Origin: Thermoproteota archaeon
GTDB taxonomy: Archaea > Thermoproteota > Thermoprotei > Gearchaeales > Gearchaeaceae
Assembly: GCA_032249235.1 (NCBI GenBank)
Contig: JAVVGF010000001.1
Span: forward strand, 80,064-144,063
Direction of reading: 5' to 3'
DNA length: 64,000 nt
Below are positions 7,855-64,000 of this stretch, piece after piece. The notes beneath the pieces were generated by a model. That model did no database searches. It was not told where the DNA came from and saw only the letters and a program-made list of their open reading frames with translations. Every line of letters starts with the position of its first letter. The stretch's first letter is position 1. Position numbers and translations under genes: made by a program.

Positions 7855-7880
7855 ATTGAATTCAATAATTAAGAAAGATT

Positions 7881-35397: not shown

Positions 35398-35412
35398 AAG
35401 CATAATAACTTC

Positions 35413-38010: not shown

Positions 38011-38158
38011 AGCTTACTTAAAACATATTCTAGATGCGATTTCTAACATAGAGAGATTTACAGAAGGTTTGACTAAAGAAGAATTTTTTAGAAACGTAGA
38101 GAAGCAATATGCTGTCTTAAGGGAGCTTGAGATAATTGGTGAGCATCTAAGAATTTAA
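37997..38158 (+). pseudogene. HEPN (DUF86/HepT-like) toxin gene, truncated after ~50 codons
   Basis: 'EAYLKHILDAISNIERFTEGLTKEEFFRNVEKQYAVLRELEIIGE' is the DUF86 N-terminal half. The ORF overlaps the MNT end in the typical toxin-antitoxin arrangement. The R-x4-6-H catalytic region is missing. Confidence 0.5.
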
Positions 38159-38216
38159 ACAAAGAGCTAAAAGCGCGAATAACTTGAATTCTTTTTTACT
38201 GAAAATCGTAATTCGA

Positions 38217-48926: not shown

Positions 48927-49382
48927 ATGACAGATGAAGCTACTGGAATATTCATAGAAGAAGATTTCGATTATGCTCATTTCATACCTAATCATCCTAA
49001 ATGCTATCCCTTACATGGGCATACTGCGAAAGTTGAAATAAGATTATTTGGTAAAAAGGAAGCATTCGATATGATATTAGACTTCGGTGAATTGAAGAAC
49101 ATTTGTAAAAAGGTCATTTCAAACTTCGATCACAAATTAATTGCATCGAAAAAGTATGTTAAGGCAATACAAAATGGTTTGGTTGAAATAGAATACAGCA
49201 AGTTTAAGTTGATCATTCCTTTAGAAAATATTTATATACTAGAAAATGAAGTAACAAGCGAAAATTTATCTGAGGAACTAAGCAAAGCGTTGCTTGAAAA
49301 TCTTCCTTCTAATGTAGAGATCATTGAGGTTAGAATATATGAAGGAAATAGAAAAGGAGCTTTTACAATTAGGAGAAGATAA
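48927..49382 (+). CDS. queD: 6-carboxytetrahydropterin synthase QueD / PTPS family
   Basis: 'CYPLHGHTAKVEI' carries the Zn-binding HGH motif, and the 151-aa length fits. Confidence 0.75.
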   Translation: MTDEATGIFIEEDFDYAHFIPNHPKCYPLHGHTAKVEIRLFGKKEAFDMILDFGELKNICKKVISNFDHKLIASKKYVKAIQNGLVEIEYSKFKLIIPLENIYILENEVTSENLSEELSKALLENLPSNVEIIEVRIYEGNRKGAFTIRRR

Positions 49383-50031
49383 ATCTTGTGTTTTGCTTTT
49401 TTCTGGAGGAATAGATTCAACTATATTGTTATTTTTATTGAAAAAATTAAATTATAAAATAAATGTTTTAACAATAAATTATAATGGAAGAAATCCTAAA
49501 GAATTGGAAGCATGTGAAAAAATTATTGATTTAGCTAAACCTGACAATTATATTATTATAGATTTAAATTTTTTAAAAGAAAGCATAACCTTATGGGAAG
49601 AATTGAAGAACAGTACTATGAAAGAAATAATTTCAAATTTACCTAGTTATTACATACCTGCTCGCAATATTATTTTCTTTTCAATAGCAGCTTATTATGC
49701 AGAATCTTTTGGTGTAAGTTTCATATTTACAGGTCATGTTAAAGACGATTCAGGTATATTGCCTGATGTGAATGAAAGGTTCGTTGATCTTTTCAATGAG
49801 ATTTTGAAGAATGGAACTTATTTAGGTAGAAATAAAAGGCTCGAAATAAAAATGCCTTTTTTGAATCTAAATAAGCTAGATCTTGCGGAGCTAGCATTAA
49901 AATATGAAGTTCCTTTGCAATATACTTGGAGTTGTCATGAATTAGCTGAATTGCAATGCGGAAATTGTAGAGGATGCATACAACGCAAGCATTTCCTTGA
50001 AATGTATGATGAAATTAAACGTAAGAGATAA
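49324..50031 (+). CDS. queC: 7-cyano-7-deazaguanine synthase QueC
   Basis: 'LLFSGGIDST' is the PP-loop and 'CHELAELQCGNCRGC' the C-terminal zinc site. The start is probably the ATG at 49339. Confidence 0.85.
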   Translation: MRLEYMKEIEKELLQLGEDKSCVLLFSGGIDSTILLFLLKKLNYKINVLTINYNGRNPKELEACEKIIDLAKPDNYIIIDLNFLKESITLWEELKNSTMKEIISNLPSYYIPARNIIFFSIAAYYAESFGVSFIFTGHVKDDSGILPDVNERFVDLFNEILKNGTYLGRNKRLEIKMPFLNLNKLDLAELALKYEVPLQYTWSCHELAELQCGNCRGCIQRKHFLEMYDEIKRKR

Positions 50032-50060
50032 ATGCAAGTTCTTCACTCATTAAATAGGCT

Positions 50061-50777
50061 ATGAACTTAGATCTATCCAAAGTAAAAGATATACATGAGG
50101 AAGTCCGCGACAGCATAGTACTTGCAGGCATATCTAATCTAAAAGTCTTACTGAAGTTGAGAGATATGAAATTACCAGTAACCCTTACAATACTTATCCC
50201 AACTTCTAAAAGAGGTGTTCACATGAGCAGATTAATAAAAGCAGTAAAGGATGTAGCGATGGATGATGATTATATTGAAAATATACTTTTGAAAATGTGT
50301 GATAAAATTAATAATCTCCATAATTCAGAATGTAAAATCATAGCTAAATTTGATTATCCTATTAAAGATTCCGATCAGTTCATGAAAGTCAAGATTGAGA
50401 TTCAAAGAAATGCACCTATAAAATATTTGTTCAAAAGGCTTGGAATAACTGCATGTCCATGTAGCAAAGAATTAACAGGAATTGGTCATATGCAAAGAGC
50501 ATGGTTAATAATAGAAATAGAAAGCGAATCTATTTTAGATTTCGACGAAGTAGCTAGCAAAATGGCAGAATGCTTCTCGGTAACTCCTGCTGAATATTTG
50601 AAAAGACCTGACGAAGCAAAGCTCATATTAGAATCTCAAGAAAATGCAAGATTTGTCGAAGATGTTGTTAGAGAAGCATTGAAAAGGTTTAAGAATGCTA
50701 ATAAAATAATAGCTAAAGCTTTAGAATCAATACATTCACATGATGCTTATGCTCTTTGGTACAAAGGATTGACTTAA
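50061..50777 (+). CDS. folE2: GTP cyclohydrolase FolE2/MptA family (GCYH-IB)
   Basis: 'KRGVHMSRL' matches the 'G(T/V)HMSR' FolE2 signature, and the gene follows queD and queC. Confidence 0.6.
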   Translation: MNLDLSKVKDIHEEVRDSIVLAGISNLKVLLKLRDMKLPVTLTILIPTSKRGVHMSRLIKAVKDVAMDDDYIENILLKMCDKINNLHNSECKIIAKFDYPIKDSDQFMKVKIEIQRNAPIKYLFKRLGITACPCSKELTGIGHMQRAWLIIEIESESILDFDEVASKMAECFSVTPAEYLKRPDEAKLILESQENARFVEDVVREALKRFKNANKIIAKALESIHSHDAYALWYKGLT

Positions 50778-50780
50778 AAT

Positions 50781-50790
50781 TTTTTATAAA
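50781..50790 (+). promoter_or_regulatory. TATA-box-like element upstream of tRNA-Phe
   Basis: 'tttttataaa' is centred about 25 nt upstream of the tRNA 5' end, the expected archaeal TATA spacing. Confidence 0.35.
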
Positions 50791-50810
50791 AACAAGATAA
50801 ATATAAAATA

Positions 50811-50895
50811 GCTCCGGTAGCTCAGCTGGGAGAGCGCCCGGCTGAAGAAGCTTTCGGAAACCGGGAGGTCGCTGGTTCAAATCCGGCCCGGAGCA
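50811..50895 (+). tRNA. tRNA-Phe (anticodon GAA) with ~12-nt intron at 37/38
   Basis: The fold is GCUCCGG / UA / GCUC-AGCUGGGA-GAGC / G / CCCGG-CUGAAG[AAGCUUUCGGAA]A-CCGGG / AGGUC / GCUGG-UUCAAAU-CCGGC / CCGGAGC-A. Confidence 0.8.
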
Positions 50896-50941
50896 TATTT
50901 TTATTAAAACCTATATATTTCTTGATAATATGATAATATAG

Positions 50942-51074
50942 CCCCCGGTAGCGTAGCCTGGTAACGCATCCGGCTGTAGGGGTTCCCCGTATAGGCAAGG
51001 AGGTCTATGACCGCCGATGAGCCTATATCAAGGCAGAAACCGGAAGATCGCTGGTTCAAATCCGGCCCGGGGGA
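50942..51074 (+). tRNA. tRNA-Tyr (anticodon GUA) with ~60-nt intron at 37/38; C1-G72 pair
   Basis: The acceptor CCCCCGG pairs with CCGGGGG and the D-arm is GCGU-AGCCUGGUA-ACGC. The anticodon arm is UCCGG-CUGUAG[~60 nt]G-CCGGA and the T-arm is GCUGG-UUCAAAU-CCGGC. C1:G72 is the archaeal and eukaryotic tRNA-Tyr identity pair. Confidence 0.75.
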
Positions 51075-51113
51075 TTCAAAAATTTAAGTTCCTTTTAGAT
51101 AATTTTTCATTAG

Positions 51114-51188
51114 GCGACCGTAGTCTAGCCAGGACTAGGACATCGGCTTTCCGAGCCGAGGACCCGGGTTCAAATCCCGGCGGTCGCA
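51114..51188 (+). tRNA. tRNA-Gly (anticodon UCC)
   Basis: The fold is GCGACCG / D-arm / UCGGC-UUUCCGA-GCCGA / T-arm CCGGG-UUCAAAU-CCCGG / CGGUCGC + A. Confidence 0.85.
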
Positions 51189-51209
51189 TAGAAAAGTTTA
51201 TAACTATTC

Positions 51210-51590
51210 ATGAAAAGATTCAATATAGTGAAGGACGACATTGGCTCTTTATATAAAAAAATAAAAGAAAAAATAGGAACACTTGTAGAAGTGAGAACGA
51301 TTGATGACAGGATAATAATAGGTAAATTGGCTTCATTTAATCCTGAAGATGGAAGTATTTTACTTGAAAAAGCAATTGAGAAGAATAGAAGAATTCCAAG
51401 TATTTATATCAGCGGTGTAGCAGTTGCTCAAATTAACTTTTTCGAAAAAGAAAATAAAGAAGAAGAAATAGATGATAAAGTTGCTGCTTTATTAAAGGTT
51501 GATCCTAGTTTGACATATGAAGAGATAGCTAAGATTTTAGATATACCTATTCAAGTTGCCCAAAGGATAGTTAAAAGATTGATGAAATGA
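51210..51590 (+). CDS. Sm-like archaeal protein with C-terminal extension (SmAP3-like), C-terminus HTH-like
   Basis: 'IGTLVEVRTIDDRIIIGKLASFNPEDGSILLEKA' is the Sm1 motif and 'RIPSIYISGVAVAQI' the Sm2 motif. A further ~55 aa ends in 'LTYEEIAKILDIPIQVAQRIVKRL'. Confidence 0.5.
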   Translation: MKRFNIVKDDIGSLYKKIKEKIGTLVEVRTIDDRIIIGKLASFNPEDGSILLEKAIEKNRRIPSIYISGVAVAQINFFEKENKEEEIDDKVAALLKVDPSLTYEEIAKILDIPIQVAQRIVKRLMK

Positions 51591-51637
51591 TGAAAAAGCC
51601 CCTATGACCTAGGAATGATTAGGATCTTGAGTGCTGA

Positions 51638-51796
51638 TCAATCATCTGGAAAATAATATACCAATTCTATTCTGAAGTTGTTTCCTTCTTTTTTCATTAC
51701 ATAATTTGTATAGCATGCATTACAAAATACAATGAATTTCTCTGAATTAATTTCAAATTCAAGATCTTTGCCACATCTGCATTTCATTTTAGCCAT
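51638..51796 (-). CDS. small zinc-ribbon protein (52 aa), not in ORF track
   Basis: Manual reverse-strand translation gives MAKMKCRCGKDLEFEINSEKFIVFCNACYTNYVMKKEGNNFRIELVYYFPDD, with CxC...CxxC. It lies in an otherwise empty 233-nt gap. Confidence 0.3.
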   Translation of the reverse strand: MAKMKCRCGKDLEFEINSEKFIVFCNACYTNYVMKKEGNNFRIELVYYFPDD

Positions 51797-51822
51797 TTAA
51801 ATTCAATAATGATAATTTATCA

Positions 51823-52851
51823 ATGAAAGTAATAAGGCTTTACAGCCATGGAAGTGTAGAAAATCTAAAGTTAGAAGAAGAAGAGATACCTAAAATCAAA
51901 CCAAATCATGTCTTAATAAAGATAATTGCTTGTTCTTTGAATAGGTTAGACATTTGGACAAGGATTGGTTATCCTGGAGTTAAAGTACCTTTCCCTATAA
52001 TATTAGGAAGCGATATAGCTGGCGTTATAGAAGATGTAGGTGAAGGGGTTGAAAGATTTAAAAAGGATGACAAAGTAGTTTTGTATCCTGCAATTACATG
52101 CAATAACTGTGAATATTGCATTGCAGGTGAACATTCTTTGTGCGATAATTTAAAAATCTTAGGACATCTAACAGATGGAGGATATCGTGAATATATGCTT
52201 GCACCTATAGATATTGTTTATAAATTCAATCCAGATAGAAGCTTTGAAGAGGCAGCTTCTTTACCTGTTACAGGTACAACTGCATGGAGAATTGTTTTTA
52301 ACAAAGCCAATCCAAAGCCAGGCAACATAGCTTTCGTTTGGGGTGCAAGTAGCGGTACAGGGATCATGCTCATTGAATTGTTAAAGTTAATAGGTTGTAA
52401 AGTAATATCGACTGCAGGAAATGAAGAAAAGATTGAGAAAGCATATAAACTTGGCTGCGATCTTGTGATAAATTATAAGACTGAAGATGTACTGAGCAAG
52501 GTTAGTGAATTCACGAATTATAAAGGTGTTGATTTGGTCGTTGATAGCGTTGGATCATCTACTTTTGAAACTAGCTTGAAAATATGCAAAAAAGGCGGAA
52601 AAGTTATATTTTTTGGAGCTACGAGTGGAGATCAGGTTAGTTTCAGTATCAGACCTCCTTATAGAAAACAAATTTCGATTATAGGTTCTTATCTAGGAAG
52701 CAAGAGTGATTTTAATGAGATCCTTAAGCTTTTCAATGAGAATAAAATCAAACCGATCATAGATTCTGTTTTTAAATTAGAGGAAGCTCCGCTAGCTCAT
52801 TCAAGAATGGAAAAAGGCTTGCACTTCGGTAAGATATTGCTAAAGCCTTGA
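51823..52851 (+). CDS. zinc-type alcohol dehydrogenase / MDR-family oxidoreductase
   Basis: 'GSDIAGVIEDVGEGV' and the structural-Zn loop 'CNNCEYCIAGEHSLC' are present, with Rossmann glycines in 'VWGASSGTG'. Confidence 0.8.
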   Translation: MKVIRLYSHGSVENLKLEEEEIPKIKPNHVLIKIIACSLNRLDIWTRIGYPGVKVPFPIILGSDIAGVIEDVGEGVERFKKDDKVVLYPAITCNNCEYCIAGEHSLCDNLKILGHLTDGGYREYMLAPIDIVYKFNPDRSFEEAASLPVTGTTAWRIVFNKANPKPGNIAFVWGASSGTGIMLIELLKLIGCKVISTAGNEEKIEKAYKLGCDLVINYKTEDVLSKVSEFTNYKGVDLVVDSVGSSTFETSLKICKKGGKVIFFGATSGDQVSFSIRPPYRKQISIIGSYLGSKSDFNEILKLFNENKIKPIIDSVFKLEEAPLAHSRMEKGLHFGKILLKP

Positions 52852-53333
52852 AAATACTAGTTACATGCAAGCCTTACAAAGAAAAGAAAGCAGTTGAAGA
52901 AATATTGAGCTTACTATTTCAGTTCGATCCTTCTTCAAAGCTAGATGATATTCAAATAAAGCCTGGTTTGTTTTCTGTTGAAACACAAGCGAAAAAAGAA
53001 GATATAGTAAAAGTTTTGCTAAAATACAGAAGATCTTATATTTATAAAGTTCTTCCAATTGATTTAATAACGAATAACTTAGATGAAATTTCAAAAATAT
53101 TTGATTTAATTGAAGAAAATAAGAGCTTAGCCATTAGATGTAGAAGCAGGTTTGGGATTAGTGCAGGCGAGATAGAAAGAAAGCTAGGTGAAATTGCTAA
53201 AAATAAAGGACTTAAAATAAACTTGGAAAATCCAGATTATGTAATCATCATAGAACCAGTTAAAAGTAATTTTTATATTTCATTTTTAACCTTTTTTCAA
53301 TACAAAATTTTGACAGGTAAGAAATCGTTATAA
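52848..53333 (+). CDS. stand-alone THUMP-domain-like protein
   Basis: The 161-aa ORF starts 'KILVTCKPYKEKKAVEEI' and is called by size and layout only, which is weak. Confidence 0.4.
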   Translation: MKILVTCKPYKEKKAVEEILSLLFQFDPSSKLDDIQIKPGLFSVETQAKKEDIVKVLLKYRRSYIYKVLPIDLITNNLDEISKIFDLIEENKSLAIRCRSRFGISAGEIERKLGEIAKNKGLKINLENPDYVIIIEPVKSNFYISFLTFFQYKILTGKKSL

Positions 53334-53368: not shown

Positions 53369-54553
53369 ATGAATTTCGAAGAATATTTCAGAGGCTCAAC
53401 TTTATTCATAGATGAAAGTAAGTTATTCCCTGAATATGTTCCTCCTTATTTACCTTTTAGAGAAGAACAAATAAAAAAATTAGCAATATTTTTTAGAGGG
53501 ATTCTAGAATTAGATAATTTTTCTTTTTATAGAGCGATTTGTCATGGACCAGCTGGTACCGGTAAAACTGCTGTGGCTAAGTTTTTCGGAAAGTTAATCA
53601 GCGATGAAGCTAAAAAAAGAGGTCTTCAGCTTTATTTTATTCATATTAATTGCCATTTAGAAAGAACCTACTTCATGGTCGTTAGCAAAATAGCAGAACA
53701 TTTGATTCCCGGAATACCTAAAAGAGGTTTTTCTCCTAAGCAATATTTAACTTGGATTTTGGATTATTTAGAAGAAGAAAACGCAAAGCTTTTATTGTGT
53801 CTAGATGAGGCTGATTACATAATTAGGAATGATCCTGAGCTTCTCTATGATTTGACTCGAATACCTGAATTAGGCATTAATAAAATTAGGATGAATTTGC
53901 TTTTGATATTAAGAAATATTTCAAACTTATATTCACTAGATGAAAGTATTCTAAGTACTTTACAGAGAAACATCAATCCATTCAATCCGTATAGTTATTT
54001 TGAAATCAAAGAAATAATTAAAGAAAGAGCTCAAGAAGCTTTCGTTGCTAATGCAGTAGATAATAGTGTAATAGAAACGATTGCGATGAAATCTGGAATA
54101 GATAAAGGTGGTAGAGGCGATGCAAGATTTGCTTTAGAATTATTGTGGAGAGCTGGTAAAATAGCCGAAATTGAAAATTCTAATAAAGTAAAGATTGAAC
54201 ATTTAAGAAAGGCAATGAGCGAAATATATCCTGGTCTATCCATAGAAGTGTTTGAAACCTTGCTTGATGAAGAAAAGTTGATTTTGTTATCGATTTGTAG
54301 GGCTTTAAGAGAAGAAAATAATTCTCATGTTAGCATAAAAAGAGTAAGAGAACATTATGAATTAATATGTGAAAAACTAAAGCGAACTCCTAGGAAATAT
54401 ACACAGTTCTGGAGTTATATACAAAGCTTGAAGAACAAGAATTTGATAAACGTATCAGTAGTAAATGAAAAAAGAGGTAGGAGAAGTTATATTTCAATAG
54501 ATGTTCCTTTAGATACACTAGAAAATAAACTACTAGAATATGTCAAAACATAG
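53369..54553 (+). CDS. orc1: Orc1/Cdc6 replication initiator
   Basis: 'YVPPYLPFREEQIKKL' is the Orc1 N-terminal motif, 'CHGPAGTGKTAVAK' is Walker A and 'LLCLDEADY' is Walker B. A C-terminal winged helix completes the 394-aa protein. Confidence 0.9.
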   Translation: MNFEEYFRGSTLFIDESKLFPEYVPPYLPFREEQIKKLAIFFRGILELDNFSFYRAICHGPAGTGKTAVAKFFGKLISDEAKKRGLQLYFIHINCHLERTYFMVVSKIAEHLIPGIPKRGFSPKQYLTWILDYLEEENAKLLLCLDEADYIIRNDPELLYDLTRIPELGINKIRMNLLLILRNISNLYSLDESILSTLQRNINPFNPYSYFEIKEIIKERAQEAFVANAVDNSVIETIAMKSGIDKGGRGDARFALELLWRAGKIAEIENSNKVKIEHLRKAMSEIYPGLSIEVFETLLDEEKLILLSICRALREENNSHVSIKRVREHYELICEKLKRTPRKYTQFWSYIQSLKNKNLINVSVVNEKRGRRSYISIDVPLDTLENKLLEYVKT

Positions 54554-54815
54554 CATTTCTGAAGAACTATTAGGAAGTAAATGGAAAATAAGATTGATAA
54601 AAGAACTCATAAATGAAGGAGAAATCAATATAAGTGCTTTAGTAAAACGTTCACGTTCTTTTTTTAAAAATGCCACAGCATATTTAGATTTCTTGAAAGA
54701 ACTAGGTATTGTTAAAGAGAAAAGATTCGGGAAAGTTAGGATAGTAATAGTAAATCAAAATTCAGAAACTTATGTTTTGCTAAAAAGATTACTTGACATA
54801 TTAGATAAAAGCTAG
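54540..54815 (+). CDS. small winged-helix DNA-binding protein
   Basis: The 91-aa ORF has an HTH-like 'INISALVKRSRSFFKNATAYLDFLKELGIV', and its start overlaps the orc1 stop. Confidence 0.4.
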   Translation: MSKHSISEELLGSKWKIRLIKELINEGEINISALVKRSRSFFKNATAYLDFLKELGIVKEKRFGKVRIVIVNQNSETYVLLKRLLDILDKS

Positions 54816-54854
54816 AAAGTTTATTTCAATTTAAAAAGAATTAATTAAGGAGGA

Positions 54855-55823
54855 ATGAGTGAAGAATTACTTTGGATAGAAAAATATCGTCCTAAAAGAT
54901 TAGATGACATAGTAAACCAGGAAGACGTAGTAAGAAGTTTGAAAAAATTGATAGAAGAAAAAAACATGCCCCATTTATTGTTTACAGGTCCGCCTGGCGT
55001 AGGTAAGACTGCTACAGCTTTAGCATTTGTTCGAGATTTATATGGTGAGGAATGGAGAAATAATGTACTTGAGCTCAATGCAAGCGACGAAAGAGGAATA
55101 GATACCATAAGAGAGAAGATTAGGGAAAGATTTGCAAAAACGTTGCCTTTGGGCGATATTCCTTTCAAAATAGTTATTTTAGATGAAAGCGATGCCATGA
55201 CCAGCGAGGCTCAAACAGCATTGAGAAGGATAATGGAAATATATGCAAAGAATATTCGTTTCATTTTAACATGCAATTATGGCAATAGAATTATAGAACC
55301 TATTCAATCTAGAACTGTTGTATTGAGATTTTCTCCTCTTGAAAAAGAACATGTAATAAAAAGGCTTCTATTTATTGCTCAAAATGAGAAAGTAAAAGTA
55401 AGTAACGAAGCATTAGAAGTGATTTATGATTTAAGCGGAGGAGATTTAAGAAGAGCAATCAATTTACTTCAGAGCTCTTCGCTTTTTGGCGAGGTAACAC
55501 CTGAAATAGTATATAAAGTAGCAGGTGCAGTTAAACCTAGAGAAGTAAGAGCAATATTCGATAATCTTCTGAAAGGAGATTTCGAAAGTGCTAGGAATGC
55601 TATTCTTAAAATGTTATTCAACGACGGAATCTCAGGCTCCGAGATAATATATCATTTATATCGTGAAACATATAGATTAAACGTACCTGATGAATGCAAA
55701 CTACAATTGATCGAAATTCTTGGAGATTATGAATATCGAATTCTCGAAGGTTCCAGCGAAGAAATACAATTAAATTCAATGCTTGCACGAATGCAATTAA
55801 TATTGAGAAATTATACTAGATGA
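54855..55823 (+). CDS. rfcS: replication factor C small subunit
   Basis: 'WIEKYRPKRLDDIV', 'FTGPPGVGKTATA', 'ILDESDAMT' and the 'SRC'-equivalent 'QSRTVVLRF' are present. The gene has no intein. Confidence 0.9.
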   Translation: MSEELLWIEKYRPKRLDDIVNQEDVVRSLKKLIEEKNMPHLLFTGPPGVGKTATALAFVRDLYGEEWRNNVLELNASDERGIDTIREKIRERFAKTLPLGDIPFKIVILDESDAMTSEAQTALRRIMEIYAKNIRFILTCNYGNRIIEPIQSRTVVLRFSPLEKEHVIKRLLFIAQNEKVKVSNEALEVIYDLSGGDLRRAINLLQSSSLFGEVTPEIVYKVAGAVKPREVRAIFDNLLKGDFESARNAILKMLFNDGISGSEIIYHLYRETYRLNVPDECKLQLIEILGDYEYRILEGSSEEIQLNSMLARMQLILRNYTR

Positions 55824-57079
55824 GCATTAGGAGGGAAGAAATCTGGACTATTAAGCATAAACCAAAAAGAATTGAGGATATCGTAGGTAATGAAGAAGCA
55901 AAAAAAGCATTTCTAGATTGGTTAAATATATGGCTCAAGGGTAAAGTTCCAGTAAAGAAAGCTATATTGTTGTACGGTCCTCCTGGTATAGGTAAGACAT
56001 TATTGGCAGAAACAGCAGCCTTGCAATTCAATTTAGAATTGATTGAAATAAATGCTGGCGACATTTATAGCGTAGAATTCGTCAAGAAAACTGCTTTGGC
56101 AACGAGCAAAGAGACAAGCTTTGTTAATAAAACTAAATTAATATTAGTCGATGAGCTAGATAGCATTGAAGGACCTAAAGCGAATTATGTTTTATCTGTG
56201 CTCGTTGATTTGATTAAAGAATCGAGATATCCTGTTGTTCTAATTGCAAACGACGGATGGAAGCCAAACTTATTCCAAATTAGAAATTTGTGCTTGATGA
56301 TTGAGATGAAAAGACTTTCTACAAGATTGATTGTGAATTATTTAGCAAACATATGCAAGAAAGAAAACTTGAAGTATGAAGAAGAAGCATTGAAAATCAT
56401 TGCAGAAAGATCTGAAGGAGACATGAGAAGTGCAATATTAGATTTGCAGTTTTGTTCTATTTTTGGAAGAATAGGTGTAAGAGAAGTCAATTTGTTATCT
56501 CCTAAAGATAGACAAAGCGATGTTTTTAATTCTATAAGGAAATTAATTTATGCAACTAATTTATTCTCTGCAAAAAGCGTATTAGATGAATTTCCTTATG
56601 ATCAAGATACGCTATTACTATGGATCGAGGAGAATTTGTTTAGATTTTATACAAATCCTAAAGATTTAGCTTTGGCTTATGATAAGTTGTCAAAGGCAGA
56701 TATATACAGAGCTAGGGCTAATAAAGAGCGATATTGGCGCTTCTTGCTATACTTTTCAGATTTGATTACAGCAGGAGTTGCATTATCGAAATCACAAAAG
56801 CCTACCTATGCAAAAATGCAATTTCCTCAGACGCTTAAAGTATTATCTAGCCAAAAAAGAATTAGGGAGCTAAGAGATGCGCTTTTAGAAAAAATTTCTA
56901 AGAAAAATCATCTTTCGAAATCTAAAGCCTTGAATGAGATCTTTTGGTATTTACCTGTAATGTTTAAAAATGAAAAGTTTGCAAACGATTTCATCAAAAA
57001 ATATGAGGTAAACGATGAACTAGCTGATTATTTGAAAAATCTATCTTCAAATATTGACTTGAAATTAAAAACTAAATAG
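55820..57079 (+). CDS. rfcL: replication factor C large subunit
   Basis: 'WTIKHKPKRIEDIV', 'LYGPPGIGKTLLA' and 'LVDELDSI' are present. The stop overlaps rfcS by 4 nt. Confidence 0.85.
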   Translation: MSIRREEIWTIKHKPKRIEDIVGNEEAKKAFLDWLNIWLKGKVPVKKAILLYGPPGIGKTLLAETAALQFNLELIEINAGDIYSVEFVKKTALATSKETSFVNKTKLILVDELDSIEGPKANYVLSVLVDLIKESRYPVVLIANDGWKPNLFQIRNLCLMIEMKRLSTRLIVNYLANICKKENLKYEEEALKIIAERSEGDMRSAILDLQFCSIFGRIGVREVNLLSPKDRQSDVFNSIRKLIYATNLFSAKSVLDEFPYDQDTLLLWIEENLFRFYTNPKDLALAYDKLSKADIYRARANKERYWRFLLYFSDLITAGVALSKSQKPTYAKMQFPQTLKVLSSQKRIRELRDALLEKISKKNHLSKSKALNEIFWYLPVMFKNEKFANDFIKKYEVNDELADYLKNLSSNIDLKLKTK

Positions 57080-58084
57080 CTTCCATAATTCTTCTTCCTC
57101 ATCTTCTTTCATAACATCGATTATTCCATCTTTACTTACTATTTCGCAACCGGATTCCTTCAATTCTCCTATGATTGAATATGCTATCTTATTTCTTTTC
57201 ATAAATTCTTCGAAATCATCTTTTTTATTCTTTTTTATTACGCAAATCATGCAACCTGAACTTAAAGATTTCAATGGATTCAGATTCAATTCTTTTAATA
57301 TTTTCTTAGTTAAATCTAGGATTAACATCTTTTCTTCATAAACTTTAAATCCTACCTCTAAAAATTCAGCTAATTCTTTCAAAGCTACAATCATTCCTCC
57401 TTCTGTTGGATCATGTGCATAAACAGCTAACCTATTCTCAAAAATTTTTAAGCCTACATCATATATAGAAAGTTCTTCGATTAGTTTCTTTGCTTCCTCT
57501 ATTTCTTCCTTCTTGATTTTGCTGGAAAGTTTATCTTCGTAATCGTAAGCTAATATTGCAGTGGCTTCAAGAGCTAATGGCTTAATTTGAACAATCAAAT
57601 ATTCCTCTGGCTTTTCTTTTATCCTTTTTAATTCTTTTAATCTTTCTTCATAATCTTCTAACATCTCTCCAACTATCGTCGTTACTACCAAGGGATTATT
57701 GACGATAGGACTGAATTCTACATGTCCTCCTACAATAGAGATGTTCATTTTTCTAGCTATGTTGCTTGCCTGTTCTTGTATTTCCTCAGCATCTTCTATT
57801 GAAGAGTTTTGTGGCAAAATTATGCATAGCGTTGCGAACTTTGGTTTAGCACCAATAGCTACAATATCATTACTTGCAATCATCATAGCAAGTTTTCCAA
57901 TATTCTTCTTTGCTCCTGTTATAGGATCACTATGGATCGCTATAACTTCTTTTGTTTTCAAAATCGCAGAATCTGCACCTACCTTAGGTCCTAGTAAAAC
58001 TTCTTTGCCTAGTATTCCTACTTTATTCAAAATTTTTTCTCTTATTTCCTTTATTCTCAATTTTCCTAGTCTTTTATTTTCCAT
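57065..58084 (-). CDS. AIR-synthase-related (PurM/HypE-like) protein
   Basis: 'IHSDPITGAKKNIGKLAMMIASNDIVAIGAKP' follows the PurM-superfamily N-domain pattern. There is no C-terminal PRIC motif, so it is not a bona fide HypE. Confidence 0.6.
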   Translation of the reverse strand: MENKRLGKLRIKEIREKILNKVGILGKEVLLGPKVGADSAILKTKEVIAIHSDPITGAKKNIGKLAMMIASNDIVAIGAKPKFATLCIILPQNSSIEDAEEIQEQASNIARKMNISIVGGHVEFSPIVNNPLVVTTIVGEMLEDYEERLKELKRIKEKPEEYLIVQIKPLALEATAILAYDYEDKLSSKIKKEEIEEAKKLIEELSIYDVGLKIFENRLAVYAHDPTEGGMIVALKELAEFLEVGFKVYEEKMLILDLTKKILKELNLNPLKSLSSGCMICVIKKNKKDDFEEFMKRNKIAYSIIGELKESGCEIVSKDGIIDVMKEDEEEELWKLFSF

Positions 58085-58121
58085 GATATGATTTTTTATC
58101 TAAAAAGGAAGTTATAATTAG

Positions 58122-58661
58122 ATGGAGGAGTTATTGATTGAGAATTATTTCAGTTATGAAACATCAAAAGTTAAAGTTAAGGTTCTGAAGGATCATGCTC
58201 AGGTAACTTTCTTAGGTAATGTATATGGACCTTTTATCAAAGATAAGGAAATAGAATTACCTAGAGCCTTAGCTAGGATTTTAGCAAGTGAAGGGATAAC
58301 AGAATATCCCCATCCTCAAATTACTTTCGATGATATAAGGAAAAGGCATCATCAGGAAAGACAAGCTAAGAATGAATTGAAAAAATTAGAAGAAGATTTT
58401 TATTTACAGGCTAAAGATCTAATATTTCTTGCTGAGAAAAAAATAATAAATGAGAATCCTAAAGAAATAAAACAGCTTATAAATGAAATATGTCTTGTGA
58501 GATTAGAGAAAATGATGAGGGGGATCTTATATGTTGAAGATTTCAATAAGATATCACAGCTTCTAACTTATGAAGAGCGATATCTCTTTTCATCATTAAG
58601 AGAAATAATTAGAACATGGTTAGATGACGTATTGAATAATGCTATCTTGAGAAAAGTATAA
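58122..58661 (+). CDS. GINS complex subunit (Gins23/Gins51 family), immediately upstream of mcm
   Basis: The 179-aa helical protein is called from its position directly abutting mcm, as in the gins-mcm operon described for Sulfolobales. The sequence evidence itself is weak. Confidence 0.5.
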   Translation: MEELLIENYFSYETSKVKVKVLKDHAQVTFLGNVYGPFIKDKEIELPRALARILASEGITEYPHPQITFDDIRKRHHQERQAKNELKKLEEDFYLQAKDLIFLAEKKIINENPKEIKQLINEICLVRLEKMMRGILYVEDFNKISQLLTYEERYLFSSLREIIRTWLDDVLNNAILRKV

Positions 58662-60700
58662 TGGGACAGGAAATAAAGGATTACAAGCAACTTTATAAAA
58701 AATTTTTTAAAGAATATACTGAAGAGGATAAGCCTGTTTATTTATCGAAGATAGGAGAAATGATTTTCTTGAACAATAGATCACTAACAATTTCTCATAA
58801 ACATTTATTTTTCTTCGATAAAGAATTAGGCGACTTACTTCTTAGGAATCCTGAAGAACAATTATATTTTGCTGAAGAGGCTTTGAAAGAGATTATAATT
58901 GAAAAAGATGAGGAGTTTCTAGAAAAAGCTAAAAAGATTTTCGTAAGGGTTAAGGACATTTATCTTGATGAATACAGGCTAAAAATAAGGAACATTCGTG
59001 CAAATTACATAGGTTCTTTAATAGAAATTAGAGGAGTAGTAACGAAGAGCAGTGCAATCAGGCATAAACTCATAAGCGGAAAGTTCTTGTGCGATAGTTG
59101 TGGTAGTATATTTAGTGCAGATTTGGCTTCAATTAAGAAGATAGATGCAATTCGTTGCATTAATTGTGGTTCAAAAGTATCAAAGATATTAGAAAAGAAC
59201 TTCATAGATGTTCAAAGAATAATAGTTCAAGAACCTTTAGAAGAAGTTCCTGCAGGCCAAATACCTAGAACAATAGAAGTATATCTTGAAGGGGATATTG
59301 TAGATTTAGCATATCCTGGAAATCATGTTACCATCACAGGTATATTAAAAGAAAAAAGAGTTTCTTCACAAGATGAGCTTACTTTCTCATCTTATATTCA
59401 CGCAGTAAACTTGGAAGTCAAGGAAAAAGGTTTTGAAGAAGAAGAAGTGACACAGGAAGATTTAGAAGCGATAGAAAAATTAAAATCAAATTACAGAAAC
59501 ATAGGTGATGCAATAGTTGATTCTATTGCTCCTTCAATACATGGCTTAAGGCATATAAAGAAAGCTTTAGCCCTTCAGCTATTTGGTGGTGTGCCAAAAT
59601 TAATGCCAGATGGTGTTAGGATAAGAGGAGATATCCATATTTGTCTAGTAGGTGATCCAGGTACTGCGAAAACACAACTTCTTCGCTATATGGTTCAATT
59701 AGCACCAAAAGGCATCTATACTACAGGCAAAGGAGTTTCGGCAGCAGGTTTAACAGCTGCTGTAGTAAGAGATAAATCTTCTGGAGAATTCTATTTAGAA
59801 GCTGGTGCATTAGTTTTAGCTGATCAAGGATTGGCTGCAATAGATGAAGTCGATAAAATGAGGAATGAAGATAGAGTAGCTATGCATGAAGCGATGGAAC
59901 AGCAAACAGTGAGCATTGCAAAAGCGGGAATTGTAGCAACACTTAATGCTCGTTGTGCTATACTTGCAGCAGCGAATCCTTCACTAGGTAGATTTGAGAG
60001 GAATAAAACAATAGCAGAAAACATAGATTTACCCATTACTCTTCTTTCAAGATTCGATTTAATATTTCCCATCATAGATATTCCAAGCAAAGAAAGCGAT
60101 GCTAAACTTGCATTACATATCTTAGCTATTCATTCAAATAGCGAAGAACCATTCAAGAATATTATCCCGCCTGAACTTCTCAGAAAATATGTAATATATG
60201 CGAGGAAGACGATTCATCCTAAATTATCTCAAGATGCTCAAAAAGAAATTTATGATTTTTATTTGAAAATGAGAGAAATCTCAACAGAAGGACCTGTTGC
60301 AATAACACCTAGACAGCTGGAAGCATTAATAAGATTAACAGAAGCCCATGCTAGAATGAATTTGAGGAATGAGGCTACAAATGAAGATGCTAGAGAAGCC
60401 ATAAATCTTATGAAATACATGATGGATACCACAATGATAGATTATGCAACTAGAAAAGTTGATGTAGATATTTTAATGTCAGGATTACCTAAATCACAAA
60501 GAGATAAATTTGTAAAAATTAGGGATATATTGACTGAATTAAATTACGAAAGAGAAGCAGTTGATCTACAAGAAGTGTTGCAAAGAGCTGAAAAGGAAGG
60601 GATACCTAGCGAGGAAGCTAGGAAAATAATTGAAAAGATGAAAAACGAAGGTGATATTTTTGAGCCTAAAAAAGGTTTCATTAAGAAAACTCCTTCTTGA
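58661..60700 (+). CDS. mcm: MCM replicative helicase
   Basis: A zinc finger 'CDSCGS...CINCGS', Walker A 'LVGDPGTAKTQLL', Walker B 'IDEVDKM' and the arginine finger 'SRFDLIF' are present, with a C-terminal winged helix in 679 aa. Confidence 0.95.
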   Translation: MGQEIKDYKQLYKKFFKEYTEEDKPVYLSKIGEMIFLNNRSLTISHKHLFFFDKELGDLLLRNPEEQLYFAEEALKEIIIEKDEEFLEKAKKIFVRVKDIYLDEYRLKIRNIRANYIGSLIEIRGVVTKSSAIRHKLISGKFLCDSCGSIFSADLASIKKIDAIRCINCGSKVSKILEKNFIDVQRIIVQEPLEEVPAGQIPRTIEVYLEGDIVDLAYPGNHVTITGILKEKRVSSQDELTFSSYIHAVNLEVKEKGFEEEEVTQEDLEAIEKLKSNYRNIGDAIVDSIAPSIHGLRHIKKALALQLFGGVPKLMPDGVRIRGDIHICLVGDPGTAKTQLLRYMVQLAPKGIYTTGKGVSAAGLTAAVVRDKSSGEFYLEAGALVLADQGLAAIDEVDKMRNEDRVAMHEAMEQQTVSIAKAGIVATLNARCAILAAANPSLGRFERNKTIAENIDLPITLLSRFDLIFPIIDIPSKESDAKLALHILAIHSNSEEPFKNIIPPELLRKYVIYARKTIHPKLSQDAQKEIYDFYLKMREISTEGPVAITPRQLEALIRLTEAHARMNLRNEATNEDAREAINLMKYMMDTTMIDYATRKVDVDILMSGLPKSQRDKFVKIRDILTELNYEREAVDLQEVLQRAEKEGIPSEEARKIIEKMKNEGDIFEPKKGFIKKTPS

Positions 60701-62829
60701 AATTGGATATTTCAGAATTAGAAAAATTTGGAATTCCTTCAGAACATATAAATAAGTTAAAAGAAAACGGCTATGTTAGTTTATATCCTCCTCAAATTTT
60801 AGCAATAGAAAAAGGAGTTTTAGATTTTAGGAATGTATTGTTAGCAACTCCTACAGCTTCAGGAAAGACATTCGTTGCGATATTAGCGAGCATTAAGCAT
60901 TTAATAAATGGAGGAAAAGTTTTATATTTATGTCCTTTAAGGGCCCTTGCTTCAGAGAAATATGAAGAATTCAAAAATTTACTTGAATTCAAGACTGCAT
61001 TATCGATAGGAGACTATGACAGTGAAGATCCATGGTTGAAGAATTACGATGTAATCATAAGCACATATGAAAAGGCAGATAGTTTATTGCGACACAAAGC
61101 TCCATGGATAAGCGATGTATCACTAGTAGTTATAGACGAAATACATATGCTTGATAGCGATCGAGGGCCTACACTTGAATTTCTAATAGCTAGATTAAAG
61201 AAGCAAGTTAAAGATGCACAGTTCATTGCATTAAGCGCAACTGCGGTAAATGCTAAAGAGTTGGCTGAATGGTTATCTGCAGAAGCAATTATAAGTAGTT
61301 GGAGACCGGTTCCTTTGAAAGAAGGAGTTTATAGAAATGGTGTAATATATTATAAAGATAATTCTACTAAGAAAATACCTATTCGAAGTGGTATTGCTTT
61401 CATTGACTTAGCGCTTGATATCTTAGATGAGGGAGGACAGGCTTTGATATTCAATTCAACAAGAGCAAATGCTATGAAGAATTCTGAGAGATTAAAAGAT
61501 TTTGTTAAAAAATATCTGACCAAAGATGAATTGAAAGAGCTCAAAGCTCTTGCGGAAAAAATTGAAGAGAATGATTGGCTATCTTCAACACTTAAAGATC
61601 AAATAATCAACGGGGTTGCATTCCATCATGCAGGATTATCTTATAATGCGAGAAGAATTGTTGAAGAAGGTTTTAGAAGTTCTCTTATAAAGGTAGTCTC
61701 ATCTACCACAACATTAGGAGCAGGCATAAACGTTCCAGCTCGTAGGGTTATAATAAATGAAATATCAAGATATTCTGCAGGTCTTGGTTATTCAGAGATA
61801 ATGACTGTTAATGAATATAAACAGCTTGCAGGAAGGGCAGGAAGGCCTAGATATGATATTTATGGCGAAGCGATCATTGTAGCAAAGGGGAAATATGATG
61901 TTGATATATTACTTGAAAATTACATCAAAGGTGAAGGAGAGCCTATTTCTTCGCAAATAAAAGATGAAAAGAGTCTGCGTTCCCATATTTTATCGTTGAT
62001 AGCAAATGAAATAGTTACAAATGAAGAAGAATTGAAGAATATTTTGCGTGAAACTTTTGCTTCAAAGCAAGTTGGCATTCTATTTCTAGAAAGAATTGCA
62101 AATAAAGTAATCAATTATTTACAGCGTGCATCTTTCATAGTTGTTAAAAATCATTACGTTGCTACTCCTTTGGGGAAAAGAGTTTCTGAATTATACATAG
62201 ATCCTTTAACTGCTGAGCAAATAGTTAAAGGATTGAAGAATTTATCTTTTGAATATGTTAATGATGATTTCTATTATCTTTTATTGATATCTTCAACAGA
62301 AGACATGCAAAGATTATCAGTTTTTAAAAGCGAAATAGATATCTTGAGAGATGAATTGGAAATAATTAACAGGAAATATCCTTTCAAATTCGATATATAT
62401 GAAGATGAATCACTTTCAATAATTAAAACAGCGAAGATGTTAAAGAGTTGGATAGACGAAGAAAGAGAAGATGAGATTGCAGATAAATATAGTATTGGTT
62501 TAGGTGATTTGTACAATCTTATTCAAATTGCTAGTTGGATTTGTCATGCTGCAAAGGAAATCTCAAAATTGCTCGGTCATCAAGAAGCTTATAATAAATT
62601 GAGCAAGCTAGAAGAGAGAATTGAAAATGGTGTAAGAGAAGAACTTTTAGAATTAGTTAGAATACCTAAGATTGGAAGAATAAGAGCTAGAATTTTATAC
62701 AATGCAGGCTTCAGAGATATAGAAAAGCTAAGCAAAGCTAAAGAAGAAGAAATAATTTCTTTGCCGATGATAGGGATCGAGACATACAAGAGCATAAAAG
62801 AATTCCTTACAAAAATGAAAACCTTTTAA
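60697..62829 (+). CDS. hel308: Hel308/Hjm Ski2-like DNA helicase
   Basis: 'ATPTASGKTF' is motif I, 'DEIHML' motif II, 'SAT' motif III and 'HHAGL' motif IV. The 710-aa protein has a C-terminal HhH region, and its start overlaps the mcm stop. Confidence 0.9.
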   Translation: MKLDISELEKFGIPSEHINKLKENGYVSLYPPQILAIEKGVLDFRNVLLATPTASGKTFVAILASIKHLINGGKVLYLCPLRALASEKYEEFKNLLEFKTALSIGDYDSEDPWLKNYDVIISTYEKADSLLRHKAPWISDVSLVVIDEIHMLDSDRGPTLEFLIARLKKQVKDAQFIALSATAVNAKELAEWLSAEAIISSWRPVPLKEGVYRNGVIYYKDNSTKKIPIRSGIAFIDLALDILDEGGQALIFNSTRANAMKNSERLKDFVKKYLTKDELKELKALAEKIEENDWLSSTLKDQIINGVAFHHAGLSYNARRIVEEGFRSSLIKVVSSTTTLGAGINVPARRVIINEISRYSAGLGYSEIMTVNEYKQLAGRAGRPRYDIYGEAIIVAKGKYDVDILLENYIKGEGEPISSQIKDEKSLRSHILSLIANEIVTNEEELKNILRETFASKQVGILFLERIANKVINYLQRASFIVVKNHYVATPLGKRVSELYIDPLTAEQIVKGLKNLSFEYVNDDFYYLLLISSTEDMQRLSVFKSEIDILRDELEIINRKYPFKFDIYEDESLSIIKTAKMLKSWIDEEREDEIADKYSIGLGDLYNLIQIASWICHAAKEISKLLGHQEAYNKLSKLEERIENGVREELLELVRIPKIGRIRARILYNAGFRDIEKLSKAKEEEIISLPMIGIETYKSIKEFLTKMKTF

Positions 62830-62851
62830 ATCTTCTCATAATTCTTCATTG

Positions 62852-64000
62852 ATGTTGAGGATAATCCATACTGCAGATCTTCATTTGGGCATAAGCTTTT
62901 CAAACATTTCAAATTCTCCTTCATTTGAGAATATTAGATTTCAAGATTTCTTCAAAAATTTTGAATACATAAAGGATTATGCCATAAAAAACAAAGCAGA
63001 CTTATTCATAATTGCAGGAGATATTTTCCATAATCCAAGACCTTCAATAGAAGCTTTCAATGCTTTCTCGAAGATAATCGGAGATTTGATTAAAAATGGA
63101 ATTCAAGTAGTTGTAACGCTAGGAAATCATGACAGTAGCAAAACTAGAGAGGCTTTGAGCTATTTAAAAAGTTATGTTAATGTTGGCCTAGAGCGTTTTA
63201 TTCTCTTCGATGTTGCAAGCAAGAAGATTATAGCTCTGCATAATGGTGAGAAAGTTAAAATAATTGGATTGCCGTATCCTCATTTCCAATCTGCTTATTC
63301 ATATCAAGAATTCGTTAGCTTCTTTGAAAATAAACTCCAAGAATTGAAAAGCAACGATACCGCAGACTATATGATAGTAGTAGGTCATATATTTGTAGAA
63401 GGAGGCAAGATTGGTTCTGAACAAAGGATTGCTTCATTAAGAGATCATCCTATACCTAAGAGATTATTTAAGGATGTTGATGTTGCATGTTTAGGTCATC
63501 TTCATACACCTCAAGAATTAGATAGTAATATTCTATATTCAGGTTCGATTGAAAGAATAGATTTCGGAGAAGAAAATGAAGAAAAAAGTTTCTTAGACAT
63601 AATTTTAGGAAGCAAATTGGAATTTAAGCGAATTCCTTTGAAGCTAAGACCTATGAAGACTTTCTATCTTAATTTTGAAAATGCATCTATTAATGAAATA
63701 AGCGATAAAATTAAAGCACTCAAATTAGAAGAGGATTCAATAGTAAGATTAAGAATAGAAGTATCTAAGACCACAAATATTTCAGCCTCTTATATTGATA
63801 AAATTATAAGAGAGAATTTCAAGCTTGCAGGTTATAAAATTGAAATAACAAGAAAGAAAGTTGAAGAAACGAGGCTTGCAGCAAAAGCATCAAGTTTCAA
63901 TGAATATCTTGAAAATTATTTGAGAATTAAATACAAGAAATCGGATGAATGGATAAGAAATGTAATCGAAGAAGCTAATAGAATTATTGAAGAAGTAAGG
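62852..64000 (+). CDS. mre11: Mre11 DNA double-strand-break repair nuclease (3' end beyond window)
   Basis: It is not in the ORF track because it runs off the window end. Manual translation gives MLRIIHTADLHLG...IIAGDIFHNPRPS...TLGNHD...GHIF, the phosphoesterase motifs I-IV. Confidence 0.85.
   Translation, partial: MLRIIHTADLHLGISFSNISNSPSFENIRFQDFFKNFEYIKDYAIKNKADLFIIAGDIFHNPRPSIEAFNAFSKIIGDLIKNGIQVVVTLGNHDSSKTREALSYLKSYVNVGLERFILFDVASKKIIALHNGEKVKIIGLPYPHFQSAYSYQEFVSFFENKLQELKSNDTADYMIVVGHIFVEGGKIGSEQRIASLRDHPIPKRLFKDVDVACLGHLHTPQELDSNILYSGSIERIDFGEENEEKSFLDIILGSKLEFKRIPLKLRPMKTFYLNFENASINEISDKIKALKLEEDSIVRLRIEVSKTTNISASYIDKIIRENFKLAGYKIEITRKKVEETRLAAKASSFNEYLENYLRIKYKKSDEWIRNVIEEANRIIEEVR

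Follow-up and report, generated by a model that had tools for sequence, protein, structure and literature searches.

Does a cluster of replication and repair genes that includes an orc1/cdc6 gene mark a nearby replication origin, and is such a cluster a single, ancient unit? The question is raised by a 64,000-nucleotide (nt) stretch of DNA from an uncultured Thermoproteota archaeon (assembly GCA_032249235.1, contig JAVVGF010000001.1, positions 80,064-144,063), referred to here as the window. A first-pass annotation had noted orc1, a gene for a small winged helix-turn-helix (wHTH) protein, both clamp-loader genes, a GINS gene, mcm, hel308 and mre11 close together at the end of the window, and had suggested that an origin may be close, by analogy with Sulfolobales. 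Our analysis indicates, with a probability that we put at roughly 0.8, that the locus is this lineage's counterpart of the Sulfolobus cdc6-2 replication island, that it comprises two main transcription units, and that it does not mark an origin.

Genes of the Cluster

Genes were called using a map of open reading frames (ORFs), profile searches (Pfam, and NCBIfam with its curated cut-offs) and sequence matches to PDB entries. The window has a GC content of about 31% and a coding density of 95% (5% non-coding). All eight genes named in the first-pass annotation were found in place by the ORF map and the profile searches, and with two further genes they make up the following series:

52848-53333, plus strand: thump, a small THUMP-domain gene (Pfam THUMP, 5e-6)
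53369-54553, plus strand: orc1/cdc6 (ORC1-type equivalog NF001623, 336.6 bits against a cut-off of 311; Cdc6_lid and Cdc6_C domains)
54540-54815, plus strand: gene for a probable ArsR-type winged-helix protein of 91 amino acids (aa), here called wHTH
54855-55823, plus strand: rfcS, clamp-loader small subunit (NF001679, 454.9 bits against a cut-off of 303)
55820-57079, plus strand: rfcL, clamp-loader large subunit (NF003229, 380.3 bits against 280)
57065-58084, minus strand: airs, a gene of the AIR-synthase family, HypE/ThiL-like (Pfam AIRS and AIRS_C; all NCBIfam equivalogs below their cut-offs)
58122-58661, plus strand: gins23 (Pfam Sld5, 24.5 bits against 22.3; NCBIfam Gins23, 80 bits, below the cut-off of 120)
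58661-60700, plus strand: mcm, replicative helicase (MCM_N, MCM_OB, MCM at 1.6e-97, and MCM_lid)
60703-62829, plus strand: hel308/hjm (longest ORF from 60697; full-length matches to PDB 2P6R, 2ZJ2 and 2VA8)
62852-64000, plus strand: mre11, encoding an SbcD-like Mre11 nuclease (TIGR00619 sbcD), running to the window edge; 386 aa in full

The Orc1 protein has the features of the Orc1/Cdc6 superfamily, i.e., a GPAGTGKT motif at residue 60, Cdc6_lid (3.6e-19) and Cdc6_C (2.4e-16), and it scored 255 bits with TIGR02928 (cut-off 181). The adjacent rfcS and rfcL genes both exceed curated equivalog cut-offs, identifying an RFC clamp loader. The gins23 product also matched the PDB GINS subunit 9MOJ_C, at 1.4e-6, and the mcm product scored 836 bits with NF040949, below the cut-off of 940. 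Hel308 scored below the NCBIfam equivalog cut-offs (730 vs 887) and aligned from end to end with the Hel308/Hjm structures of Archaeoglobus fulgidus (2P6R, 507 bits), Pyrococcus furiosus (2ZJ2, 499 bits) and Sulfolobus solfataricus (2VA8, 487 bits). It has all five domains of this family (DEAD, Helicase_C, HTH_61, Helicase_dom4_arc and HHH_5), with DEIH at residue 145, motif IVa (FHHAGL) at residue 307, and QLAGRAGR. We regard the gene identities as established.

The cluster had been described as lying almost entirely on one strand; the minus-strand airs gene splits this run into two same-strand blocks. Similarly, the 4-nt overlap reported between mcm and hel308 applies to the longest ORF, which begins at the first TTG (60697), whereas the likely start is the second TTG (60703), with which the N-termini of Hel308 from five relatives align, and this leaves a 2-nt spacer. 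The junction is tight whichever start holds. The spacer between hel308 and mre11, previously given as 23 nt, is 22 nt.

A Probable Counterpart of the Sulfolobus cdc6-2 Replication Island

A "DNA replication island" was described at the cdc6-2 locus of S. solfataricus, comprising the genes for RFC-s, RFC-l, Cdc6-2, Gins23 and MCM (Berthon 2008, PMC2643942); in the same study cdc6 was found near RFC in Pyrobaculum aerophilum, and Hel308a/Hjm adjacent to MCM in Aeropyrum pernix and P. aerophilum (PMC2643942, supplementary file 3). In the window, orc1, rfcS, rfcL, gins23 and mcm all lie within 53369-60700, i.e., 7.3 kb. As in the Sulfolobus island, with which the comparison was made by published description, five genes are found within a few kb, the Orc1 is of the Orc1-2 side, gins23 is directly upstream of mcm, and there is no origin at the locus. 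The locus differs in being nearly collinear on one strand, in having the wHTH gene probably coupled to orc1 and a THUMP gene before it, in the insertion of an AIRS-family gene on the other strand, and in having hel308, mre11 and rad50 appended downstream.

Conservation was followed in 86 loci fetched around MCM homologues and searched by tblastn with the window proteins, to which further contexts were added (loci carry L numbers below). L001-L006 are contigs from other samples encoding an MCM identical to that of the window. Among species-representative genomes the closest by MCM share 58-69% identity with it; they are a Thermoproteota metagenome-assembled genome (MAG), a "Thermoprotei" MAG and the single-cell genome SCGC AAA471-B05, which is represented by two contigs (L008 and L092).

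The order thump-orc1-wHTH-rfcS-rfcL-(airs)-gins23-mcm-hel308 is kept in L007, L008, L009, L087 and L089. The AIRS-family gene occupies the same position in four of these (L007, L008, L087 and L089) and is absent in L009; the THUMP gene is directly upstream of orc1 in L008, L009, L087 and L089, and L011 gave a weaker match. Four loci are rearranged (L094, from Methanomethylicia, and L011, L017 and L018): orc1-wHTH is followed there by rfcL/rfcS on the opposite strand, and these in turn by gins23-mcm-hel308. In a Thermofilaceae MAG (L093) and an Aigarchaeota locus (L095), orc1 is convergent with rfcL/rfcS. The order of the cluster exceeds what chance would produce.

The most consistent element was the junction between the two helicase genes. 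With hel308 directly 3' of mcm on the same strand in 15 of the 15 loci with enough flank from the TACK group (Thaumarchaeota, Aigarchaeota, Crenarchaeota, Korarchaeota), and in none of the 54 euryarchaeal or DPANN loci, the pattern is unambiguous even with phylogenetically non-independent loci. In the TACK loci the two genes are -4 to +101 nt apart. Hel308 is likewise encoded directly beside MCM in A. pernix and P. aerophilum; there it was reported as a "loose connection" in two Crenarchaeota, whereas the present loci include Bathyarchaeia, Methanomethylicia-like and Thermoprotei MAGs. The island and the mcm-hel308 link had thus both been published before. What the comparison adds is that gins23-mcm-hel308 is apparently conserved TACK-wide, beyond the two species noted in 2008, which supports a functional partnership between MCM and Hel308.

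These observations show that the window contains a conserved TACK synteny block (an Orc1-2-cluster gene, both RFC subunits, Gins23 and MCM), here nearly collinear, and suggest that the mcm-hel308 order is an old, TACK-wide arrangement that couples expression of the replicative helicase with that of a fork-repair helicase. The functional meaning of this coupling is our interpretation.

Separately, six loci of Methanoperedens (L023, L033, L038, L044, L076 and L084) have a gene for a Ski2-like helicase 1-4 kb upstream of mcm, on the opposite strand. Its product is 24-27% identical to the window Hel308, and this may be an independent helicase-mcm linkage.

The Orc1 Paralogue

Because archaeal Orc1 paralogues differ in their association with origins, it was important to place the window protein. 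Two ancient clusters, Orc1-1 and Orc1-2, have been distinguished, with loss of Orc1-1 inferred in Thermoproteales, which kept Orc1-2 only (PMC3914693). In S. solfataricus and Haloferax volcanii, Orc1-1 alone coincides with an origin (PMC3914693). Sulfolobus Orc1-2 is a non-initiator that acts as a global regulator of the DNA-damage response (PMC6061795, PMC9738581). Four arginines of the winged-helix (wH) domain that contact origin recognition boxes (ORBs), i.e., R345, R346, R367 and R369 of A. pernix Orc1-1, are not found at the corresponding positions in non-initiator Orc1-2 (PMC9738581).

Raw PDB scores had first suggested an Orc1-1 type. The window Orc1 scored 167 bits with P. aerophilum Cdc6 (1FNN), 124 with S. 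solfataricus Orc1-1, 124 with A. pernix ORC1, 82 with A. pernix ORC2 and 77 with S. solfataricus Orc1-3, and it was the 124 bits for S. solfataricus Orc1-1 against 82 for A. pernix ORC2 that pointed to this type. We rejected this assignment because the lineage of the best match, P. aerophilum Cdc6, kept only Orc1-2, so that this protein is itself of the Orc1-2 type (PMC3914693), and because of the tree and the wH motif. In a neighbour-joining tree (200 bootstraps) built from the window protein together with 19 homologues and five references from the PDB, S. solfataricus Orc1-1, A. pernix ORC1 and S. solfataricus Orc1-3 were split from all other sequences in 200 of 200 bootstraps; the window Orc1 grouped with P. 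aerophilum Cdc6 and with sequences from Thermofilaceae, Aigarchaeota, Methanomethylicia and Asgard archaea. The first arginine pair of the recognition helix is RR in the same three proteins of S. solfataricus and A. pernix, TQ in the window Orc1 and in A. pernix ORC2, and SQ in P. aerophilum Cdc6. The surrounding motif of the window protein (PRKYTQFWSY) resembles that of A. pernix ORC2 (PRGYTQYHIY), and in the wing the window sequence NEK-RGRRS, compared with SRGRYG in initiators, has its arginines shifted. The window Orc1 therefore does not carry the initiator-type set of four ORB-contacting arginines, the first pair being T-Q.

From the tree, the wH motif and synteny we assign the window Orc1 to the Orc1-2 cluster. 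It shares with Orc1-2 of Saccharolobus islandicus the organization into AAA+, lid and wH domains, the lack of an initiator-type RR pair, and the genomic island. The S. islandicus protein is a global regulator of the DNA-damage response (Sun 2018; Liu 2022). In lineages with Orc1-2 alone, e.g., Thermoproteales, a protein of this cluster presumably initiates replication, and the window protein may have either role.

Is There an Origin Nearby?

The likeness to Sulfolobales that prompted the origin proposal is real in that the island is shared. However, the orc1 paralogue of that island is cdc6-2/orc1-2, which adjoins no origin, so the analogy was drawn to the wrong Sulfolobus paralogue. In Sulfolobales, oriC1, oriC2 and oriC3 adjoin cdc6-1, cdc6-3 and whiP (PMC2643942, PMC3914693, PMC4010727, PMC6061795), and orc1-2 is near no origin in any known Sulfolobales species (PMC6061795). 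Since the island is built around Orc1-2, which in Sulfolobales is a DNA-damage regulator, clustering of orc1, rfc, gins and mcm genes is no evidence for a nearby origin.

If the island marked an origin, an AT-rich unwinding element accompanied by ORB or mini-ORB repeats should lie no more than a few kb from orc1. In favour of it, many archaeal origins adjoin an orc1/cdc6 gene (PMC2643942, PMC4010727), and if the window Orc1 is the organism's sole Orc1, as in Thermoproteales, it must initiate somewhere. The direct evidence was negative. The ORB core TCCANNGGAAA had no match in the 64 kb; with up to 3 mismatches, the TTTCCAGTGGAAAC-type ORB core had 8 matches in the window against 14.1 expected, with none of them intergenic near orc1. 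ORB matches over the whole window are thus at or below chance. Searches for direct and inverted repeats, covering about 5 kb on each side of orc1 and the whole window, revealed no origin-like architecture, returning only matches between paralogous tRNAs, between the Walker-A regions of the RFC paralogues and in AT sequence of low complexity. Of the 120-nt windows richest in AT, most are coding. GC skew, computed on the window, showed no inflection at the locus: it was positive over plus-strand genes, negative in two minus-strand blocks and changed sign solely at strand switches, tracking the coding strand. In addition, the window Orc1 lacks the RR pair that contacts ORB in initiators.

What speaks most decisively against an adjacent origin is that the genes are packed too tightly to leave room for one. 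The spacer upstream of orc1 is 35 nt, as the first-pass annotation had given it, and the gene downstream overlaps orc1, in place of an intergenic region of several hundred bp with an AT-rich element and inverted ORB repeats. The corresponding spacer is similarly short, about 25 to 65 nt by gene and ORF calls, in six relatives (L008, L009, L087, L089, L094 and L095). Two longer gaps that had been considered as candidates are occupied by genes: 50777-51210 holds three tRNA genes, and 51590-51823 holds a minus-strand ORF for a Cys-rich protein of 52 aa that is conserved in L009. Gaps of at least 100 nt occur in the window only at 3.5, 30.2, 34.2, 37.4, 38.0 and 50.8 kb, the last being the one filled by tRNAs. 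No unfilled non-coding gap of more than 100 nt lies within about 15 kb of the cluster; the nearest, at 37.35 kb beside a decayed toxin-antitoxin pair, contains no repeats. Downstream, the genes in L001 are equally tightly packed over 7 kb past mre11. Taken with the ORB, repeat and skew results, this leaves the proposal of a nearby origin unsupported by the sequence evidence, and we consider an origin within a few kb of orc1 very improbable. The island, which we read as a counterpart of the cdc6-2 locus, would accordingly mark no origin over the roughly 15 kb upstream of it or the roughly 7 kb downstream. If the window Orc1 is the only one in the genome, no initiator gene would be linked to the organism's origin or origins.

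The oriC island of Pyrococcus (cdc6, DP1, DP2, RFC-s and RFC-l) provides a useful contrast. It too has Orc1/Cdc6 clustered with clamp-loader genes, but an origin has been mapped beside it, its cdc6 is of the Orc1-1 type, and ORB repeats lie upstream of that gene, whereas the window locus has no non-coding space, no ORB motifs and an Orc1 of the other cluster.

Two stretches in relatives were considered and set aside. In L009, about 900 nt between wHTH and rfcS, examined as a possible origin, proved to be coding: rfcS there (6540-8144) encodes 534 aa compared with 322 aa in the window, and the extra ~210 aa in the N-terminal half are probably an intein. In L093, a 358-nt gap upstream of orc1 (7644-8000), examined as a positive control for an origin, is GC-rich and resembles a structured-RNA gene rather than an AT-rich origin, with no ORB-like repeats.

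Probable Transcription Units

The junctions between the genes are as follows:

thump to orc1: 35 nt, with a TTATAAAT box about 35-40 nt upstream of the orc1 ATG
orc1 to wHTH: overlap of 14 nt
wHTH to rfcS: 39 nt, with a GGAGG 8 nt upstream of the rfcS ATG, typical of internal operon genes, and a TTTAAAAA box
rfcS to rfcL: overlap of 4 nt
airs and gins23: divergent, 37 nt, A/T-rich
gins23 to mcm: overlap of 1 nt
mcm to hel308: 2-nt spacer (TTG at 60703) or 4-nt overlap (TTG at 60697)
hel308 to mre11: 22 nt, with a TTTTAAAT box that overlaps the hel308 stop codon, about 25 nt upstream of the mre11 ATG

From these we infer two main units. The first would be (thump)-orc1-wHTH-rfcS-rfcL. The second would be gins23-mcm-hel308, probably continuing into mre11-rad50 and starting from the 37-nt divergent promoter region shared with the AIRS gene. 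Co-transcription of gins23, mcm and hel308 is plausible from the spacing and the conserved adjacency, and for mcm and hel308 in particular because the coupling is very tight and is conserved in all of the TACK loci. Co-transcription of mre11 with hel308 is less secure, because of the TTTTAAAT box upstream of mre11 and because this adjacency is lineage-specific. A scan for sigma-70 promoters and intrinsic terminators gave results below shuffled expectation and is not relevant to archaea.

Alternatively, the locus might consist of at least two independent units with no functional coupling, in which mre11-rad50, and possibly hel308, have their own promoters and adjacency is a by-product of neutral rearrangement. 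With a coding density of 95%, short spacers are the rule across the window, and both the box overlapping the hel308 stop codon and the young hel308-mre11 adjacency speak for this reading. Set against this, the mcm-hel308 order is kept over several classes in the TACK loci, which argues for selection; in L087 hel308 and mre11 overlap by 8 nt; and on the plus strand no run of six or more T residues occurs from 58703 to the window end (58.7-64.0 kb). We consider independent units unlikely, although they deserve to be kept in mind.

Several points count against our preferred reading, i.e., a cdc6-2-type island of two main units that marks no origin. The operon boundaries are predictions from spacing and conservation, and the TATA-like boxes upstream of rfcS (TTTAAAAA, 25 nt) and mre11 (TTTTAAAT, ~25 nt) could be internal promoters. 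The Orc1-2 assignment was made without a Sulfolobus Orc1-2 sequence as a direct reference, and A. pernix ORC2, a long branch, grouped with the initiators in 99 of the 200 bootstraps. The ORB consensus varies from one lineage to another, and the scan was run without a positive control from a mapped origin; a divergent origin may hide in coding sequence.

The Repair End of the Cluster

The prediction that rad50 lies beyond the window was borne out on contigs with an identical MCM (L001), in which rad50 encodes 809 aa and overlaps mre11 by 4 nt. The Rad50 product has Walker A (GSTGAGKT) and Walker B (FLIIDE) motifs and, at residue 404 of the 809, a central CPLC hook. On these contigs rad50 is followed by genes for an aldehyde dehydrogenase, a minus-strand AMP-binding enzyme, and XPB with Bax1. 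In another contig of the same set (L002, 6694-9007), rad50 is broken into two ORFs (429 and 354 aa), through either a frameshift or an error of assembly.

The Mre11 protein has all of the calcineurin-like phosphoesterase motifs of the Mre11/SbcD family (DLHLG, GDIFH, GNHD, GHIFVEG and GHLH), besides being encoded next to a Rad50 with a CxxC hook. It scored 117 bits with the sbcD subfamily model TIGR00619 (cut-off 77.65) and far below the cut-offs of the archaeal Mre11 equivalogs; its best PDB match was Thermotoga maritima SbcD/Mre11, at 96 bits, as against 38 bits for P. furiosus Mre11. Outside its own lineage, the nearest homologues of the protein are bacterial SbcD. The idea that mre11-rad50 is a recent insertion of bacterial SbcCD was nevertheless weakened by the finding of Mre11-Rad50 orthologues throughout the lineage, at 46-61% identity, and of a pair near nurA/herA in SCGC AAA471-B05; the wider affinity of the window nuclease to bacterial SbcD persists. 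Mre11-Rad50 would be the organism's ordinary double-strand-break complex.

Only in the lineage of the window (L001-L005 and L087-L090; genus- or family-level) does mre11-rad50 directly follow hel308. In SCGC AAA471-B05, hel308 is followed by a minus-strand gene (L008), and mre11-rad50 is on the other contig (L092), a few kb from nurA/herA and beside the same AMP-binding and XPB genes. The "super-cluster" of the first-pass annotation is therefore no ancient unit: in this lineage alone, the old island came to lie beside an mre11-rad50...XPB block that already existed. The likely event is a rearrangement within the lineage that moved mre11-rad50 and the AMP-binding/XPB/Bax1 block to the 3' end of hel308.

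In Sulfolobus and other thermophiles, mre11 and rad50 form an operon with herA and nurA. The window genes share with it the 4-nt overlap of mre11 and rad50 and the motifs, and HerA and NurA are encoded, but the genes are split, and the nuclease is nearer to bacterial and Thermotoga SbcD than to characterized archaeal Mre11. The pair runs from 62852 onward on the plus strand, so that the four genes do not form one operon in the window; the other two are found 37 kb from it, as follows:

22329-25811, minus strand: compact unit of herA (570 aa), an ORF of 220 aa, and nurA (372 aa)

The products of herA, the 220-aa ORF and nurA are, respectively, 52%, 35% and 45% identical to those of the nurA-x-herA genes of SCGC AAA471-B05.

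The orc1-wHTH Pair

Orthologues of the wHTH gene directly follow orc1 in nine loci (L007, L008, L009, L011, L017, L018, L087, L089 and L094), so that the pairing spans at least two class-level lineages. The window wHTH protein itself gave sub-threshold winged-helix matches alone (HTH_45, 18.9 bits vs 25.5). Three of seven orthologues, the distant ones, match PF01022 HTH_5 (best 9e-10), and the profile matches CzrA/ArsR structures with E values of about 1e-3. The two genes are probably translationally coupled. In a non-exhaustive literature search we found no prior description of a conserved orc1-wHTH pairing, and it is the only element of the locus of which this is true. To specialists, neither this result nor the mcm-hel308 result will be surprising; both are cheap leads for work on Orc1-2 or Hel308.

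The pair raises the possibility that the locus is a damage-response module, in which the Orc1-2-type protein, possibly together with the wHTH protein, co-regulates rfc, gins, mcm, hel308, mre11, rad50 and xpb-bax1. Sulfolobus Orc1-2 being the global regulator of the DNA-damage response, the position of the window Orc1 on the Orc1-2 side is consistent with such a role, as are the conserved pair with its probable translational coupling and the concentration of repair genes downstream. However, Sulfolobus Orc1-2 acts on genes such as ups, ced and tfb3 rather than on those around its own locus, the repair genes came together recently and in this lineage only, and the ANTTTC element, with 5 specified bases, is uninformative at 31% GC. 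We regard a module of this kind as improbable. It is quite improbable, likewise, that the Orc1-2-cluster protein and the presumably coupled, ArsR-like wHTH protein form a two-component regulator heading, and controlling, a replisome-plus-repair array. If they did, the pair would be a hard-wired link from an archaeal DNA-damage regulator to expression of the replicative helicase.

Other Features of the Window

The tRNA genes in and outside the 50.8-kb gap, and the small ORF in the second candidate gap, are as follows:

34226-34327: tRNA-Met(CAT) with a 28-nt intron, found by Rfam and by ARAGORN with intron detection; missed by default ARAGORN
50811-50895: tRNA-Phe(GAA), called as tRNA-Leu(AAG); it takes the tRNA-Phe fold when a 12-nt intron that follows the anticodon loop is taken out
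50942-51074: tRNA-Tyr(GTA) with a 59-nt intron, found by ARAGORN with intron detection; missed by both default ARAGORN and Rfam
51114-51188: tRNA-Gly(TCC)
51638-51796, minus strand: Cys-rich (CxC...CxxC) ORF of 52 aa, between the gene for a 126-aa protein and that for an alcohol dehydrogenase; 47% identity in L009

In L009, the equivalent of the 52-aa ORF lies just upstream of thump. The neighbouring 126-aa protein (51210-51590) carries an HTH_24 winged helix at its C-terminus, and its N-terminal part looks, by eye, Sm-like; with an identity of about 70% in L008 and L009, it is far more conserved than its neighbours. Directly upstream of the tRNAs, 48927-50777 holds a tight 7-deazaguanine (archaeosine precursor) cluster, comprising a queD-like gene of the 6-pyruvoyltetrahydropterin synthase (PTPS) family, queC and a folE2-type GTP cyclohydrolase gene.

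Further upstream, the longest truly non-coding stretch of the window, 325 nt at 37350-37675, has no repeats. Next to it, 37676-38160 appears by eye to be a decayed toxin-antitoxin pair of the nucleotidyltransferase (MNT)/HEPN (DUF86) type, the first ORF being interrupted by an in-frame stop and the second by frameshifts. At 34364-35400, a frame that starts MKIAIIGAG (FAD/NAD-binding-like) is broken into short ORFs, and may be a frameshifted pseudogene or reflect a sequencing error.

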